A stretch of 64,000 bases of DNA from Escherichia coli (GCF_024223415.1 NZ_CP100500.1), one strand, 5' to 3'; positions 19,316 through 26,324 are shown, counted from the first letter of the stretch. Program-made: numbers and translations. The notes: a model not told the origin generated them from the letters alone.

Positions 19316-19535
19316 ACTTTGCTCCTTATCGGTGGTTAAGATTTACTGGTGCAATAAATGAAAAAAGCCGCGTCTCCCGGAGAAGACGCGGCCTGACGGG
19401 TGAAATGAATAAGGTTTATTGTCTGAGAGGCCTTTCACTGGCGAGCCACGCATTAAGCGGCTTTCCGGTAACAATGGCTGGGGCTGTATTTACCTTTGAT
19501 ATTAATAATGTGCAGAGAAACGCATGGTTTACTCC

Positions 19536-19946
19536 TTAGATTTTAAGTTTGTCCTGGGCTACAACGACAGGTTTTCCGGATGTGTCGATGACTCCTACCG
19601 TCGGTACGCCATTTTTGATTTCGAAGAACGGTTTGTTGCTACCTGAGCACAGTTGATTGTCCCCGTATTCAATCATTTGTGCTTTCCCGGTTTTCAGGTT
19701 AACTACCGAGACAGTGTAGTCGTAGCACCAGGCACCACCACGTTCAAGCACGAAAACATAGCTGTTATCTTTATAGTTGAACTGATTCTTTGTCTGGCAA
19801 TTCATACCGTCAATTTCGGTACAGGAAAACGCTTCTGTAGTATTAACGTATTTGATGTTATTTGGCAGTTTTACTTGTTTCGCAGTAGCGAAGACAGAGA
19901 ACAGAATAGTTACAGCAACGAGTAAAGTTTTGATAAAAGTTTTCAT
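19536..19946 (-). CDS. Small secreted protein of unknown function (four Cys)
   Basis: 136-aa ORF with signal peptide MKTFIKTLLVAVTILFSVFATA; AT-rich; SD present. Confidence 0.6.
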   Translation of the reverse strand: MKTFIKTLLVAVTILFSVFATAKQVKLPNNIKYVNTTEAFSCTEIDGMNCQTKNQFNYKDNSYVFVLERGGAWCYDYTVSVVNLKTGKAQMIEYGDNQLCSGSNKPFFEIKNGVPTVGVIDTSGKPVVVAQDKLKI

Positions 19947-19961
19947 GATAGACTCCTTAAA

Positions 19962-20450
19962 TTAGTTAAACGCAGCTACGTAGTTTTTCACCAGATACGC
20001 GAATTCATGCACGCCAATTTCACCGAACCAAACCAGGTAGGCCGGGTCATCTAAACCAAAGTAACGGTAGCCAACAACTTCATGGGTTTTTGGGTTATAG
20101 AGTGTTACGATAAAGTCCCAGCCGCAGGTATTGGCTTTGCAACCGTCGCCCTGGAGCCAGACTGTATCGTTAATGTTTACTGGCGTGATACCTCCACCAG
20201 GGCCATCCATATAGCCGCCTTTACCGAACATGCCGCTCAGTCCGACCGGTTTTAATGCTTTGTCGATAGCGGCTTTGTAGGTAGCGTCACCTTCGTACAA
20301 CTCGTACGTTGATGGACACGCTCCAGGTTGTTCAGCCCAGGCTTCCGGGTTACAACTAAGTGCTTGTTTTACGGTAGCCGCTTCTGCGTTAAAGTTAAAG
20401 CCCGTGAACAGAACCGCCAGAAATAACATAAGGGTATGTAAACGTTTCAT
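19962..20450 (-). CDS. Secreted/periplasmic protein of unknown function
   Basis: Signal peptide MKRLHTLMLFLAVLFTGFNFNAEA with GGAAG SD; ORF track extends in frame to 20753 (263 aa) with a second upstream Met at 20645. Confidence 0.55.
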   Translation of the reverse strand: MKRLHTLMLFLAVLFTGFNFNAEAATVKQALSCNPEAWAEQPGACPSTYELYEGDATYKAAIDKALKPVGLSGMFGKGGYMDGPGGGITPVNINDTVWLQGDGCKANTCGWDFIVTLYNPKTHEVVGYRYFGLDDPAYLVWFGEIGVHEFAYLVKNYVAAFN

Positions 20451-20780
20451 TGTAAATATTCTTCCGTTGTAAATGGCGCTGGAAAATTTCTCATCAGTGA
20501 AACCTTCCGGAAGTTTCCCCCCCTTGTATGATGTATATCGCCAGTATTTTATTTCATCCCGGCTGTAATTTTTATATTCCCCGGCACGTGCAATAACGCT
20601 GACCAGAGATATAAGGCTCATTAATAACTTTACAGGTAATTTCATAATTAAATTTCCAGTGAGTGAATTGACAGGTGAGGGGTAAAACTTTCTCTCAGGT
20701 AATATATATCTGAAAATATTTTCAATAACACCAGACAGGAAAAACACCACCACAGGCGGTGGCGTTTCTTTGGGGCGTCT

Positions 20781-21851
20781 TTATTTAATCCGGGCCATCG
20801 CGTTTCTCAGTGCCAAATCTGCCTCTTCCGTTATATCCAGGCTTTTCTGCAATACCGCCTCTGACCGGGTCAGTGCCTGACGTGCTGCCAAGGGGTTCCG
20901 GATATGCTCCATCGTCAGCATCGTGTCTTCATAGCCCTGCTGACGCCAGATGTCGGTATGTGCCGATGTAAAACTGAGCAGACCGCCACTTTTGCCTTCT
21001 TCCCCTGTGTGTTTCAGCCTTTTCCGGGGACGGATTTCAAGGATTGTGGTGTCCGGAAAAGCCCGGCGATCCCATAAAGAACCGTCACTCAGATGCGTCA
21101 CAATCACCATATTGCATCCGGCATCGACCAGAGGCGTTACAGGGGTATTTCCCTGCATATTTCGCCATCCTCCCATCCCACCATCACCGAACATTGTCCC
21201 CTGAACCTCACGGGGATGGAACAACAGGGGCAGTGCGGCTGACGCAAGCAGAGCCTCTTTCTGCTGTCCGCGGGGCAGACTCTGGATATGCTGAAAAACG
21301 GCGTTTTTCGTGGTTCCGGCACCCAGTTCAGCACGAATGCAGTCAATAATATCCTGCATGCCCCCTTCTGTGGGGTACAGCGACACATACAGCGGTAGCC
21401 CGTCTGCCAGAGCATCAGTATCAAGATAATGATCCATCAGCGCTGTCAGAGGCTCATCTGACAACAGCGGCTGAGCCATCGGATTGTCGAAGCCGTTGAT
21501 TATCGATATATGGCGAAGAAGTATCGTAAGCAGTGCTCCTGCACGTCCGGGGATCTGGCAGAGGTTCATTGCCTGGAACAATTTTTTCAGCAATGAAAAG
21601 TAAACCGATCGGTTTACCGACAGCACCTGATTATTCCCCAGATGATCCCAGAGCGCCTCCAGGCGTACGGCAGCTTCTGACAGATCGGGAGAGGCCGCGA
21701 TAATGGCACCATTGAATGCGCCAATGCTGGCCCCTGAAACCATGCTGATCTGTGTACCACACTCTGCCAGTGCCTTAACCACTCCCGCCTGATAAGCGCC
21801 CACCGCCCCGCCACCGGACAGCACCAGCCCCGTTTTCATTTCTGTACTCAT
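20781..21851 (-). CDS. Patatin-like phospholipase
   Basis: 356 aa; oxyanion-hole motif LSGGGAVGAYQAG, GxSxG nucleophile elbow (GASIGA), DGG motif (FGDGGMGG); ATG overlaps stop of upstream gene. Confidence 0.8.
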   Translation of the reverse strand: MSTEMKTGLVLSGGGAVGAYQAGVVKALAECGTQISMVSGASIGAFNGAIIAASPDLSEAAVRLEALWDHLGNNQVLSVNRSVYFSLLKKLFQAMNLCQIPGRAGALLTILLRHISIINGFDNPMAQPLLSDEPLTALMDHYLDTDALADGLPLYVSLYPTEGGMQDIIDCIRAELGAGTTKNAVFQHIQSLPRGQQKEALLASAALPLLFHPREVQGTMFGDGGMGGWRNMQGNTPVTPLVDAGCNMVIVTHLSDGSLWDRRAFPDTTILEIRPRKRLKHTGEEGKSGGLLSFTSAHTDIWRQQGYEDTMLTMEHIRNPLAARQALTRSEAVLQKSLDITEEADLALRNAMARIK

Positions 21852-22753
21852 GCAGCCCCCTTCTGAAATATTTCATCGACCATACTTTCAGAGAGGCGTT
21901 CTGCAGAGCAGAGGCGAGGCATGCGAACCGGTAAGTGTTCTGCAGCCTGCGTGGTTGACCAGATCACCGGATGCTGCTCTTCACTGCACCAGTCTCCCAG
22001 CCAGTTAATCGCGTCATGCCACTCGTTATCTGCCTGCTCCCGGCCCTGACCACCAAGCCAGTCCAGAGTGTTCAGACGCACGGTTGCACTACCGCCACTC
22101 TCCTGTGCCATCTGCGTTAATGCTTTATGTCTGAGAATATCCAGTAGCTGGTTAACCTGGCCTGTTTCGCTCTGACGTATCACATCACCAAACGCGCCCC
22201 AGCGAAGCTCTTCAAGTGCCACATAACAACGTCCGGCAGGGGAAAATGACGCATATCGCCCGGCGCTCCACCATGAGAATATCTGCTCAAGATGTAACTG
22301 CGCCCGCTGAACCTGGTCAACACGGTGGAGTTTTTCTTCAAGATGATTCAGTTTATGGTGAACCTGATCGGCCAGGGTGAGTAACTGCTCCCGCGTATCT
22401 GCGGAATAATGCGCCAGCCTGGCTGTATCACTGACCAGTGAACTGACCCTGTCGTTTACCCGGGTAATCGCGTAGTTTGTGGTGGCAAGTGACGTTGTCA
22501 TCTCCGTCAGCCAGCGCAGGGACGCCTCAACGCCCTGTGCAAGCGACGCATTGATGGCATTCTGCCGTGCAGCGCCTTCGCCGGTCAGCCCCTCTTTTAA
22601 ACGCCGGAAGAACGTGCGCTCTCCGGCCGTGCGGATATGCTCCTGTGCAACATCGATTCCGTTTGCGAAATCAACCACAAATTTTTCAGGAAGACAGGTG
22701 AGTACCTGACATACCCGGTTATCAGCAATTTGTTGAATAAATGGTGAAGTCAC
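21848..22753 (-). CDS. Hypothetical 301-aa helical protein, middle gene of the GTPase-patatin operon
   Basis: No P-loop; likely GTG start overlapping the GTPase stop (GTGA) and stop overlapping patatin start (ATGA). Confidence 0.6.
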   Translation of the reverse strand: MTSPFIQQIADNRVCQVLTCLPEKFVVDFANGIDVAQEHIRTAGERTFFRRLKEGLTGEGAARQNAINASLAQGVEASLRWLTEMTTSLATTNYAITRVNDRVSSLVSDTARLAHYSADTREQLLTLADQVHHKLNHLEEKLHRVDQVQRAQLHLEQIFSWWSAGRYASFSPAGRCYVALEELRWGAFGDVIRQSETGQVNQLLDILRHKALTQMAQESGGSATVRLNTLDWLGGQGREQADNEWHDAINWLGDWCSEEQHPVIWSTTQAAEHLPVRMPRLCSAERLSESMVDEIFQKGAA

Positions 22754-25146
22754 AGCATTGTCTCCAGCTCTTCCCTCAGCGCCTTACTGTCAGTAATGAG
22801 CTCAGGAACCCTTTCATTTAATGCCTGAAGTCGCCCGGTAAGTCGTTCCTGCGCCTGCTGATCGCGTTTATGATCTTCAGAGCTCTGAATCAGCGTGTTA
22901 CGCAGTTGTTCAACTTTCTCCCTGAATGCGCAGAAAAAGGCATCGATTTCCTGGCGGACGGGCTGGTTAATATCCTGCTCAATGGATGCCTGCAGCTCCC
23001 CGAAATATGCCCGGGTCAGTGACATAACTTCCTCTCTGACCTTGTTGATATTGATCACGCTGCGACTCACATCCTCGTCATAGTTTTCCCAGCCCAGGTC
23101 ACTGGTGCCAAACCATCGACAAACGGTTCCCCATACGCCACTCTGCCGACGGCGACGGGTGACGGTCTCCGTTCTTTCCTCCATAAGCGCACTCAGATTT
23201 ATTTTTACCGCGAGCCGGGTCTGTAACTGGCTGACTGCCGGAAAACTGATTTTTACGGTAAAGCCCTCATCCTCCAGGCGGGCATTGATGCGACCGGCAA
23301 TGTTTTCTGTGGCGTACAGGGCCGTGCCACGAAAACCTGTTTCAATCCCGCTGACGATTTTCTCCAGCTCAGGCCGGAACTGTGCTTCAGCCTCACGGTG
23401 CAGGCTGGTCACGGTCGATTCGATTTGCGTCATCAGTTCAAGGGCTTCCCTGCGATCACTGAATTTTATTTCGGGGCTGTCCGGGGCAAAATCTCGTTTC
23501 CTGTAATCCTCCCGGCCCTGGTTGTTGATACCGGACCATTGAGAAATTTTCCCCCATAATCCGGACTGAGACCTTCGTTGTTCTGCGTCTTCTTCCTCCA
23601 GCATTTGCTGTTCTTTGCGTTTACCGCTTCTGAAATAGTCATTCAGCTCCTCTTCCAGTGAGGTGCAGACCCCCGTCAGTAATTCCCGGGTTTTAGTATC
23701 GATCTCCTCCATGGCCATTCTGACATCAGTGGTCATCTGCTCCTGACAGTCCGCGATTTCCCGGATATCCGCAAGCAGGCTGGTGATATGCGACTGCAGT
23801 GACTGAATGCTTTGCTGTAGCCCCTGATGGCGTAACAACAGGTATTCACTGATATTTTCTGCATTCTGCATCAGTTTTGCGGCGGCAGAGTCAACCGCCA
23901 GTGCCGCAGCTCTGGAATGTGAGCTCTGTATGACTTCCGTTATCAGTTGATCGATAAGTGAGCCTTCCCACAGGTCTGTCGCCCCTTCAGTTGCCAGTTC
24001 ACTGTCTTTACAGACGTATTCTTTTTTCATGCAACCGAAGGCACCTCTGATAAAATCATCGACCCAGGCTTCATCAACAGGAAGGGTTCCGTTTTTCCGT
24101 AACTCATGAAGCGCACGGTTAGCCAGGTATGCCTGGCGTGAGGATCCGGGATAAACGCGGGAGGCGGGCAGCACATCGCTGTTCAGCATTGCCGGAACTT
24201 TCTGGCGTACGGCATCTGCCCCATCGCCATTGCGGTCTTTCTCATCAAATTTATTGACCAGTACAAACAGGCGGCCGGCTGATACGTCAGCAATGGCATT
24301 AAGCTCTTTACGGACGTCTTCATCCGCTTTTGAGTTCATCTGGGTGTAATCCATCACAGCCAGAACCGCAGAGGCTTTCTGCAGTTGATCCCGCATCATC
24401 ACTTCCATCTGCGGTTGTCCGGCCTCATTAGGGCCGGGGGTATCCAGCAGTGTGAGTGTTCCCTGGCATGCATCCATCCCCACCAGATGGCTGAATTCCA
24501 CGTCGATCACCGGCAGTTTCTGCACTTCTGCGTATTCATCAAAAGGAAATTCAGTCCCCATTGCCGCAGCAAGACGAACCAGATCGTTTAACGATGCCAG
24601 TCCGGTAAAGATTTCCTCCTCCCCGTGGTATTCATTTTTGAGCCAGCCATCATCCGTCAGAATATCCAGCAGTTCGCGGGTATCCCCGGTTTGCTGCAGG
24701 GTCTGTGCGACCTGCTGTCCTGCCGGGGTGGCGAGTTTTTCCTGCAGTGTGATTAATAAATTGCGGACAGGCTGAATATGTTCCAGATGGAGAACCGGCT
24801 CAGTTTTTCCGGGAACGTGGCGGATGAGCGTCGGTACAGAGGTCATGGGGCGGTTACGGTTAGGCAGAATTTCCTGCCCCACAATGGCGTTGATGGTGGT
24901 TGATTTGCCTGCTTTCATCGTGCCGACAACAGCCAGCACCATCTCCCTGCGGGCGGTTTTGATTTGTTCGCCCTCCAGCTCCTCAATTCTTTTCAGTGCT
25001 TTCTGTTTATCAAAAAGCAGTCTGTTTTCGTTCTTACTGTCAGATAACACATCTGGCTCCTCAACCATTTGCCGGAGCAGATTAATGTTCAGTTGCAAAA
25101 GTCGGTCGGCTTCATCACAAAGCAGGGCGATGTTCTTTTCGTGCAT
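22750..25146 (-). CDS. Large dynamin-like GTPase (798 aa)
   Basis: P-loop GTMKAGKST, switch II DTPG, G4 NKFD, then ~450 aa of predicted helical region; SD AGGAAGG upstream of ATG 25146. Confidence 0.75.
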   Translation of the reverse strand: MHEKNIALLCDEADRLLQLNINLLRQMVEEPDVLSDSKNENRLLFDKQKALKRIEELEGEQIKTARREMVLAVVGTMKAGKSTTINAIVGQEILPNRNRPMTSVPTLIRHVPGKTEPVLHLEHIQPVRNLLITLQEKLATPAGQQVAQTLQQTGDTRELLDILTDDGWLKNEYHGEEEIFTGLASLNDLVRLAAAMGTEFPFDEYAEVQKLPVIDVEFSHLVGMDACQGTLTLLDTPGPNEAGQPQMEVMMRDQLQKASAVLAVMDYTQMNSKADEDVRKELNAIADVSAGRLFVLVNKFDEKDRNGDGADAVRQKVPAMLNSDVLPASRVYPGSSRQAYLANRALHELRKNGTLPVDEAWVDDFIRGAFGCMKKEYVCKDSELATEGATDLWEGSLIDQLITEVIQSSHSRAAALAVDSAAAKLMQNAENISEYLLLRHQGLQQSIQSLQSHITSLLADIREIADCQEQMTTDVRMAMEEIDTKTRELLTGVCTSLEEELNDYFRSGKRKEQQMLEEEDAEQRRSQSGLWGKISQWSGINNQGREDYRKRDFAPDSPEIKFSDRREALELMTQIESTVTSLHREAEAQFRPELEKIVSGIETGFRGTALYATENIAGRINARLEDEGFTVKISFPAVSQLQTRLAVKINLSALMEERTETVTRRRRQSGVWGTVCRWFGTSDLGWENYDEDVSRSVININKVREEVMSLTRAYFGELQASIEQDINQPVRQEIDAFFCAFREKVEQLRNTLIQSSEDHKRDQQAQERLTGRLQALNERVPELITDSKALREELETML

Positions 25147-25207
25147 TATTTAACCTTCCTAAGACGCATTTTCATGACAACCACGGAGGAGGTCATTTAC
25201 TACAAAC

Positions 25208-25242
25208 GATCGTTTATAACGATCGATATGATAGTAACGATC
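25208..25242. promoter_or_regulatory. Cluster of three GATC (Dam) sites within repeated AACGATCG motifs in the leader of the GTPase operon
   Basis: aaacGATCgtttataacGATCgatatgatagtaacGATCgatac; GATC at 25208, 25221, 25239. Confidence 0.5.
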
Positions 25243-25363
25243 GATACATTCTATTAACTTGAGAAACACAACGCAAGGGGACAACCCGGGTATGGCTGCG
25301 TTTGCATAGTGTTTTCATGGAGTTAAAAATCTGTAACAACAGCCTGGTACATCACCACCGGGT

Positions 25364-26241
25364 TCAGAAGAAAATCCAGTTCCATACCGCGCGGGCAACA
25401 GAGACCACCGAGTCACGGACGGCGCGCAGAACCGTGCGTGCAACAGAGGCAATGCAGACGCTCTCCGCCGTGTCAAATATCCGGTCCACCGCACCGGTAA
25501 ACTGTTCACGGGCCTGAGACCGGACAGACTCCGTGCGCAGCTCGTCCTGCAGGCGGGTCATCAGGGGACTGGCGGCATGGTCGGGAAGTGCTGTCATGAG
25601 CGCACTGACCAGCGTATCCAGTTCCCAGCCGGTGCGGGCCGATACGGCAACAACCCGATGTACGGGCCGGAACAGACGGAATACCGCCTCCGTTTTTTCG
25701 CGAATGTTCTGTGCCTGTGCGGGAGAAGGCTGAATACCGGCCATATCCCATTCATGGCAGGGCTCCGTTTTATCGGCCTGCATCACCACAAACAGTACCC
25801 GCTGATGTCCCCGGTGCAGGATGTGTCGCCAGAAATACTCATCCACAGACAGGGCACGGTCATCGGCTTTAATCAGCCACAGTACCAGGTCCAGTTCGAG
25901 CAGAATGTCACGGTACAGGGCTTCATACTCTGCATCCCTGTCCCGGCTCTCGCCCACCCCACCCCGGGCAGGTCAGTGATAACCATGCTGTGACCATGGC
26001 CATTCAGACGGAAGCGCTGCACTTCCCGGGGGCCGGCGTGAACATCACTGACCGGGGTGACCTCCCCCTGAAACAGCGCATTACAGAGTGAGGATTTACC
26101 GGCCCCGCTTTTACCCATAATGCCAGGCACGGGTTCGTGACTGGTGAGTTTGCGCAGATGTTCCAGGATGTGACGGGAAAGTGAGTAAGGCAGGGAGGAG
26201 AGCGGTTTTTCAATTGCCTCAATGGCATCAGACGGATTCAT
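25364..26241 (-). pseudogene. yeeP: YeeP/YfjP/YkfA-family GTPase split by a 5-bp tandem duplication
   Basis: ORF 25873..26280 (P-loop GIMGKSGAGKSSLCNALF ... ITDLPGVGW) and ORF 25364..25957 (GESRDRDAEYEALY...) in different frames; junction reads cccggggtgggGTGGGcgagagc. Confidence 0.75.
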
Positions 26242-26324
26242 ACATGTATTCCCGGTGAAAAAAGACAAAACCCCGCGCACCGGAAAGGTGGCGGGGGATT
26301 CACGGAAATAATATCTGTCTGAAA

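Follow-up and report, generated by a model that had tools for sequence, protein, structure and literature searches.

The locus described here lies on the minus strand of a 64-kb stretch of Escherichia coli DNA, referred to throughout as the window, and comprises a yeeP-like GTPase pseudogene (25364..26241), a leader (25147..25363) and an operon of five genes. The pseudogene matches at 98% an intact 873-nt gene for a 'GTPase family protein' (291 aa) of strain ECCNB12-2, but a 5-nt insertion near 25961-25965 puts it out of frame, with the broken frames spanning 25364-25957 and 25873-26280; yeeP is also annotated as a pseudogene in K-12 and in strain MP1. The first operon gene (22750..25146) encodes a dynamin-family GTPase of 798 aa, matched by the CrfC model of NCBIfam and named 'dynamin family protein' in RefSeq. 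It is followed by genes for a 301-aa protein of the YjcZ/RdcB family (21848..22753; Pfam YjcZ PF13990, E = 4.7e-70, and RefSeq), whose start overlaps the dynamin stop, and for a 356-aa patatin-like phospholipase (20781..21851; RefSeq, with weak patatin/phospholipase matches in NCBIfam and PADLOC), whose start again overlaps the preceding stop. Two more ORFs (19962-20753 and 19536-19946, together 19536..20753) have no Pfam match and correspond to SID94_19705 and SID94_19700 of MP1. A strong intrinsic-terminator-like hairpin on the same strand (19365..19394), with a 13-bp stem containing 8 GC pairs and followed by TTTTTCATTT, is predicted to end the transcription unit; its place after the fifth ORF fits a five-gene unit and matches the extent of a co-regulated cluster of five genes in MP1. 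Thus, the GTPase-lipase operon of the original prediction does contain both a GTPase and a lipase, but that name leaves out the YjcZ/RdcB-like gene and the two further ORFs.

The first two genes of the operon recall the RdcA/RdcB (YjdA/YjcZ) pair of K-12, the first encoding a dynamin-like GTPase of the CrfC/YjdA family and the second a YjcZ-family protein. Unlike that pair, the operon adds a patatin-like lipase, and the 798-aa GTPase is a paralogue of CrfC/YjdA (RdcA), scoring 556 bits with the CrfC model, under its equivalog cut-off of 1146. Assignment of the cargo to a known anti-phage defence system was considered and rejected, as PADLOC v2 gave only marginal matches for the operon proteins (LeoBC, E = 8.6e-5 over ~60 residues; a phospholipase effector, E = 8.4e-5), which sets the operon apart from the LeoABC and 'Dynamins' systems. 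Regarding the chromosomal context, the locus had been placed at the same backbone position as K-12 flu. This is confirmed by a near-identical strain, where the island ends with yeeS-yeeT-cbeA-cbtA-yeeW and is followed by tmaR, yeeA and sbmC. The gene order in K-12 is yeeP-isrC-flu-yeeR, inside the CP4-44 prophage.

The leader extends over 217 bp, from the stop of the yeeP-like gene (25364) to the ATG of the 798-aa ORF (25146), both on the minus strand, and a site search of the window locates three GATCs in it, at 25208, 25221 and 25239, with start-to-start spacings of 13 and 18 bp. Read on the plus strand, each of them lies inside a copy of AACGATCG(A/T)T, beginning at 25205, 25218 and 25236; the length, the sites and the repeated motif are all as originally predicted. 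In the direction of the operon, and palindromic on both strands, they are named GATC-I (25239..25242), the promoter-proximal Dam site; GATC-II (25221..25224), 18 bp away; and GATC-III (25208..25211), 13 bp farther on. They are the sole GATCs between 24582 and 28158, and four of the seven occurrences of AACGATCG on both strands of the window fall in the leader.

In K-12, agn43 (flu) carries three GATCs that overlap an OxyR site and confer ON/OFF phase variation dependent on Dam methylation. The leader was aligned with the K-12 yeeP-flu and the O157:H7 yeeP-like-cah intergenic regions, and the alignment, which had been proposed as a check, displays homology from the yeeP-like stop to ~20 nt beyond GATC-III. 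The 5' part of the leader is therefore homologous to the flu and cah regulatory regions, as anticipated by the idea that the switch was kept while the cargo was exchanged. Conservation in this alignment extends to the -10 box, all three GATCs and the OxyR half-sites, while the flanks have diverged. Relative to K-12, the window shows 76% identity in the core and 37% in the flanks.

A broader alignment covered ten switches of E. coli, Citrobacter and Enterobacter that precede three types of cargo, namely the fused leaders of the window, CFT073, MP1 and 536, K-12 flu, O157 cah and one agn43 allele, together with three Citrobacter/Enterobacter loci in which a yeeP-like gene and a switch precede two small signal-peptide proteins. 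From the -10 box (TAATAGAAT) to just beyond GATC-III, 34 of 51 columns are invariant, compared with 8 of 93 columns in the flanks (Fisher p = 4e-13), and GATC-I is among the elements that do not vary. Core identity of the window to the K-12, O157, AR0349 and Citrobacter/Enterobacter switches ranges from 71 to 86%, and flank identity from 32 to 47%; for the agn43/cah switches aligned here the core values are ~71-76%.

A sigma-70 promoter can be predicted on the minus strand immediately before the GATC sites. Its -35 element, TTGCGT (25271..25276), is homologous in position to TTGTCC of K-12 and TTGCGT of O157 cah, and is separated by a 17-bp spacer from the -10 element TAGAAT (25248..25253), which lies within TAATAGAAT and is invariant in all ten aligned sequences. 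The generic promoter scan did not call this pair in the leader, because TTGCGT matches TTGACA at only 3 of 6 positions. Transcription is predicted to start at the G of GATC-I (25242, minus strand) by homology to K-12 isrC, the 5' leader RNA of flu, which is annotated to begin at the G of the first GATC (L002:2318), 5 nt after TAGAAT. For agn43, Wallecha et al. in 2002 are said to have placed the start at the first GATC as well and the OxyR footprint at -16 to +42, with a region of ~100 nt reportedly sufficing for switching.

Candidate OxyR sites were scored by their matches at the 20 specified positions of the consensus ATAGnTnnnAnCTAT-N7-ATAGnTnnnAnCTAT, as quoted in PMC2909390. The predicted tetramer site of the leader, ATCGATCGTTACTATCATATCGATCGTTATAAACGAT (25209..25245, minus strand, 37 bp), spans GATC-I and GATC-II and reaches three bases (GAT) into GATC-III, and with 16/20 it outscores every other site on either strand of the 64-kb window, the runner-up reaching 13/20. 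By the same count, the experimentally characterised site of K-12 agn43 scores 14/20, O157 cah 13, and the other alleles of the fused leader 15-16. The geometry of the predicted site relative to the three GATCs is that of the K-12 site. In the direction of the gene, the GATCs are spaced by 18 + 13 bp in the fused leader, where agn43/cah leaders have 19 + 13 bp; the absent base falls between the first two half-sites and shifts GATC-I by 1 bp in the OxyR frame, and changes before GATC-I compensate for it, so that the canonical ATAG-N7-CTAT-N7-ATAG-N7-CTAT register is kept. In addition, the first half-site is nearer to consensus in the window (ATCG) than in K-12 agn43 (ACGA).

Considered as a whole, the leader shares with K-12 agn43 (i) a position downstream of yeeP in an island of the CP4-44 type, (ii) the same -10 box with a start, predicted here, at the first GATC, (iii) three GATCs in or overlapping one OxyR tetramer site, also predicted here, that lies across the start, and (iv) the 13 bp between GATC-II and GATC-III. 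It differs from K-12 agn43 in the distance between GATC-I and GATC-II, in its first OxyR half-site, in its flanks, in the absence of the ~200-nt isrC-type 5' UTR with its terminator hairpin, and in its cargo, which is a dynamin-like/YjcZ-like/patatin operon and not an autotransporter adhesin.

The clustering of GATCs as evidence in itself was rejected, since the window holds two triple clusters and 32% of dinucleotide shuffles reach at least two, with a mean of 1.2 clusters of three GATCs within 35 nt per shuffled 64-kb window. GATC is not enriched overall either (210 sites versus 241 +/- 14 expected). The second triple cluster, at 203-223 (203, 208 and 220), sits in GC-rich, coding-like DNA, lacks a repeated context and any OxyR-like match, and serves as a chance control for that of the leader. 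The leader cluster gains its significance from its repeated sequence context, the OxyR-consensus match and the homology to agn43 switches. That the triplet might be a chance cluster, or have some other GATC-dependent function, for instance in SeqA binding or in a small transcript hairpin, without any link to OxyR, would accord with the rate at which such clusters arise in 64 kb and with the 8-bp hairpin formed by CGATCGTTATAAACGATCG, which a terminator scan flagged. Nonetheless, this explanation is highly improbable considering the clear homology to agn43 switches, the block-wise conservation and the unique 16/20 OxyR match; the hairpin, moreover, follows from the CGATCG palindrome and is shared by agn43 leaders.

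The 3' part of the leader has a different origin. Over its last ~45 nt (~25192-25147; CCTCCGTGGTTGTCATGAAAATGCGTCTTAGGAAGGTTAAATA, followed by ATG) it matches exactly the end of the spacer between cah and the dynamin gene in O157:H7, so that the leader reads as an agn43-type regulatory region (~25363-25190) fused to the sequence proximally upstream of the dynamin operon (~25192-25147). At the joint, a CCT microhomology (25190..25192, minus strand), similarity to agn43/cah stops and identity to the cah-dynamin spacer starts; the sequences meeting there are ...AATGACCT|CCTCCGTGG in the window, ...AATGGCCT|GCGAAAAGG in the O157 cah leader and ...CATTGTCCT|CCGTGG in the O157 spacer. The O157:H7 locus has the order yeeP-like GTPase, switch, cah, dynamin operon. 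It has the same dynamin operon as the window, and the two loci are identical over the 77 nt that follow the yeeP stop and over the final ~45 nt ahead of the dynamin ATG. Unlike in the window, the switch of O157 is separated from the dynamin gene by a 2.85-kb cah with a long leader, its core is only ~71% identical and its GATC spacing is 19 + 13. As far as its sequence allows us to judge, the leader of the window is a diverged but intact copy of an agn43-type switch placed in front of a dynamin-like GTPase/lipase operon. Starting from the order yeeP - switch - agn43 - dynamin operon, the agn43/cah 5' UTR, the coding sequence and ~65 nt of the spacer were likely lost by a microhomology-mediated deletion; the CCT microhomology favours this direction, and so does a right flank that matches exactly.

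The opposite course, in which the fused arrangement is ancestral and agn43 was inserted, was evaluated by looking for a dynamin-proximal remnant downstream of the switch in the K-12 flu leader, and such a remnant was rejected: local alignment of the flu leader with the dynamin-proximal leader gave a score of 9, equal to the shuffle mean of 9.2 (p ~0.66), and thus no significant similarity. Neither a promoter nor a terminator was predicted in the O157 cah-dynamin spacer (L001 7239-7348). In islands of the O157 type, the dynamin operon may consequently be co-transcribed with cah from a phase-variable promoter, even before any loss of agn43.

The predicted 5' UTR of the operon (25147..25242, minus strand) is 96 nt long, with a Shine-Dalgarno sequence AGGAAGG at 25154-25160. 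It lacks the terminator hairpin of the isrC type seen in agn43 leaders, and an Rfam search of the leader returned neither IsrC nor any other RNA family. Its predicted fold (-25.6 kcal/mol, z = -2.3) has the Shine-Dalgarno sequence base-paired to CCUCCUCC. A mini-ORF of nine codons, MKMRLRKVK (25175-25147), ends in TAATG and thereby overlaps the dynamin start codon. This arrangement, which the O157 cah-dynamin spacer has as well, could provide translational control or coupling.

On the model of agn43, for which competition between Dam and OxyR is the established mechanism (PMC13337833; PMC2909390), the leader would operate as follows. Transcription would start at GATC-I from the predicted promoter, and the predicted 37-bp OxyR tetramer site, covering about -4 to +34, would overlap all three GATCs. 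In the OFF state, OxyR bound to the unmethylated site over the start would block RNA polymerase and at the same time shield the GATCs from Dam, making this state heritable. After replication, Dam and OxyR would again compete for the GATCs. In the ON state, methylation of the GATCs by Dam would prevent OxyR binding, and the 5.9-kb operon would be transcribed. OxyR binding, differential methylation and reversible ON/OFF switching of the leader are inferences, and the operon is probably ON in only part of a clonal population. Related designs occur in Salmonella, where gtr (P22, LT2) and opvAB are likewise described as having OxyR and Dam compete at GATCs within half-sites to give heritable ON/OFF states (PMC2909390; PMC4856963). 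Unlike the fused leader, to which they are likened here by description, they possess four GATCs that form two pairs, and upstream of the promoter OxyR has alternative sites, acting as activator or repressor depending on the one it occupies (PMC2909390). In the searchable literature, regulation of this dynamin operon by such a switch is not described, and the E. coli methylome and UPEC dam-mutant literature searched makes no mention of this locus.

Expression data bearing on the leader are available for E. coli MP1 from a 2026 RNA-seq comparison of MP13 and KP7, marked derivatives that were constructed separately and whose only differences, by the authors' account, are their markers and the Kapi1 prophage (PMC12922286). 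The five-gene cluster SID94_19700-19720 was 'the most strongly up-regulated' between them whatever the medium, both lysogen colonies being high and both cured colonies low in two media (PMC12922286). The authors state that regulation of these dynamins had not been described before, report ~30% identity to the core RdcAB proteins, and attribute the difference to the prophage, as crosstalk between mobile elements (PMC12922286). The 13 genes higher in the lysogen in any medium include the hyxRAB and dynamin operons (PMC12922286). When located in the MP1 genome (NZ_CP139039.1, segment 4052000-4082000), the cluster comprises the dynamin, RdcB-like and patatin genes and two hypothetical genes, and lies directly behind a fused leader that is identical to that of the window at 206 of 217 positions (95%), with the three GATCs at the same positions; the yeeP-like pseudogene directly upstream of the leader remains outside the co-regulated cluster. 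The hyxRAB promoter is itself said to be invertible and phase-variable, as reportedly described by Bateman and Seed in 2012.

The difference between the MP1 lineages fits a heritable ON/OFF promoter sampled through single-colony bottlenecks, and the design of the comparison cannot separate the prophage from the state of the lineage. Because the list of genes higher in the lysogen also holds hyxRAB, part of the reported prophage crosstalk is suggested to consist of lineage phase states. The MP1 authors' own view is that a prophage-encoded factor controls the operon; under this or any other trans-acting control, the GATC/OxyR block would be irrelevant to the MP1 differences. The agreement of lysogen colonies with each other, and of cured colonies with each other, in both media speaks for it. 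Nevertheless, neither a phage regulator nor a binding site is known, the separate construction of MP13 and KP7 took each of them through single-colony bottlenecks, and a bias of this kind is documented for agn43 (PMC3764049); together with the presence of hyxRAB in the list, these points make control in trans quite unlikely.

The fused leader is widespread. Its full length is found in ~1984 of 5426 complete E. coli genomes (1983-1985; ~37%), CFT073, UTI89 and 536 among them, with up to three copies per genome, and 635 genomes have agn43/cah adjacent to the dynamin gene. For the 5' end of the dynamin gene, 2888 occurrences were counted across 2466 genomes; this is roughly the sum of the fused and the agn43/cah contexts, and there is therefore no evidence for a third upstream context. 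In either arrangement, the operon is present in ~45% of complete E. coli genomes. Genomes at least 99% identical to the 106-nt core of the window number only 54.

Variation within the fused lineage was evaluated on 51 leaders, of which genomes supplied 11 and an unbiased pattern scan of metagenomes 40; together they represent 19 distinct core alleles. The 18 + 13 bp spacing is constant in 51/51, GATC-I is present in all of them, and all three GATCs are kept in 50/51, the exception being a TATC in place of GATC-III in one metagenome contig. Between the -10 box and GATC-I, the window allele carries a GT (25246-25247) that is unique among the 51; ACATCGATCG is the common form, most leaders having AC at the position of the GT, and MP1 has TAAA, resembling the agn43 form. 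A conservation of the GATCs beyond that of their surroundings could not be demonstrated within these 51 leaders, as 1 of 12 GATC positions varies versus 11 of 35 neighbouring ones (one-sided p = 0.11), a comparison that is underpowered.

GATC positions being statistically indistinguishable from their neighbours in the fused lineage is also what might be expected if the leader were a relic, that is, an agn43 promoter/OxyR region carried along by the deletion that still drives or represses the operon without heritable switching. Such a leader could be permanently OFF, owing to a stronger OxyR site, or permanently ON, with Dam always winning. The OxyR match, 16 versus 14/20 in K-12, could indeed bias the leader to OFF, and the spacing shorter by 1 bp moves GATC-I within the OxyR site. 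A relic is unlikely, though, for three reasons: (i) neither the -10 box nor any of the GATCs and half-sites was lost, in spite of a core identity of only ~71-76% to the agn43/cah switches, (ii) blastn searches for an agn43-linked leader resembling the fused one gave only pieces of 46-61 nt at 80-82%, and (iii) high and low states both exist in MP1 lineages that by the authors' account are distinguished by markers and one prophage. We therefore favour the functional reading, and regard it as likely that the leader constitutes an intact Dam/OxyR epigenetic switch of the agn43 type directly ahead of the five-gene operon. Phase variation of the operon itself is inferred with good support, on the basis that all agn43 elements are present and at least as near to consensus as in agn43, and that expression in MP1 depends on the lineage.

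Switches of this family are also observed outside E. coli. In Citrobacter braakii (L025 5064-5203), Enterobacter wuhouensis (L029 5627-5766) and C. amalonaticus (L037 883-1022), a yeeP-like GTPase gene is followed by a triple-GATC switch of the K-12 type, the core of which is matched by agn43 switches of that type in 1514 genomes of E. coli. Downstream come the two small signal-peptide proteins (155 and 158 aa) and then DUF932, antirestriction and yeeS-like genes. A genome-wide scan with the pattern CGATC-N14/15-GATCGTT-N5-CGATCG yielded mostly chance matches in GC-rich genomes, and only those in Enterobacterales are informative. In AT-rich intergenic DNA, the pattern appears in C. werkmanii (L005 7175-7212), Rahnella bruchi (L021 10674-10710), Mixta tenebrionis (L040 687-723), Erwinia oleae (L063 7877-7913) and Zophobihabitans entericus (L012 4458-4494). 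The genes downstream of these five loci are unrelated, that of Zophobihabitans encoding a 644-aa protein without known family, and the loci may represent further switches of the Dam/OxyR type.

Three cargo types are thus found behind the switch: the agn43/cah adhesins, the small secreted proteins of Citrobacter and Enterobacter, and the dynamin-like/YjcZ-like/patatin operon. The kind of switch is already known; what is new here is the dynamin operon as its cargo and the variant spacing shorter by 1 bp. A wider reading, put forward only tentatively and itself rather doubtful, would see in the yeeP-linked Dam/OxyR switch a portable epigenetic 'bet-hedging cassette' of CP4-44-family islands whose cargo is exchanged, and in the operon a costly phage-defence module of the membrane-remodelling or abortive-infection type that is kept ON in only a minority of cells. 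If this were true, the switch would control practically all E. coli copies of the operon, either directly or from in front of agn43, and some transcriptome differences between clones, those of MP1 for example, would be epigenetic lineage states and not regulation.

Should the switch of the leader work as proposed, a widespread operon would be expressed stochastically and heritably, and a cargo of E. coli other than an adhesin would join the short list of loci that are phase-variable through Dam and OxyR. It would also offer a testable account of the top differential gene set of MP1, published as prophage crosstalk, and a warning for transcriptomics and phenotyping of carrier strains, in which the picking of single colonies would fix the state. 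Finally, if the dynamin/patatin operon is a defence or membrane-stress system, it would be an example of a defence made phase-variable by epigenetic means.
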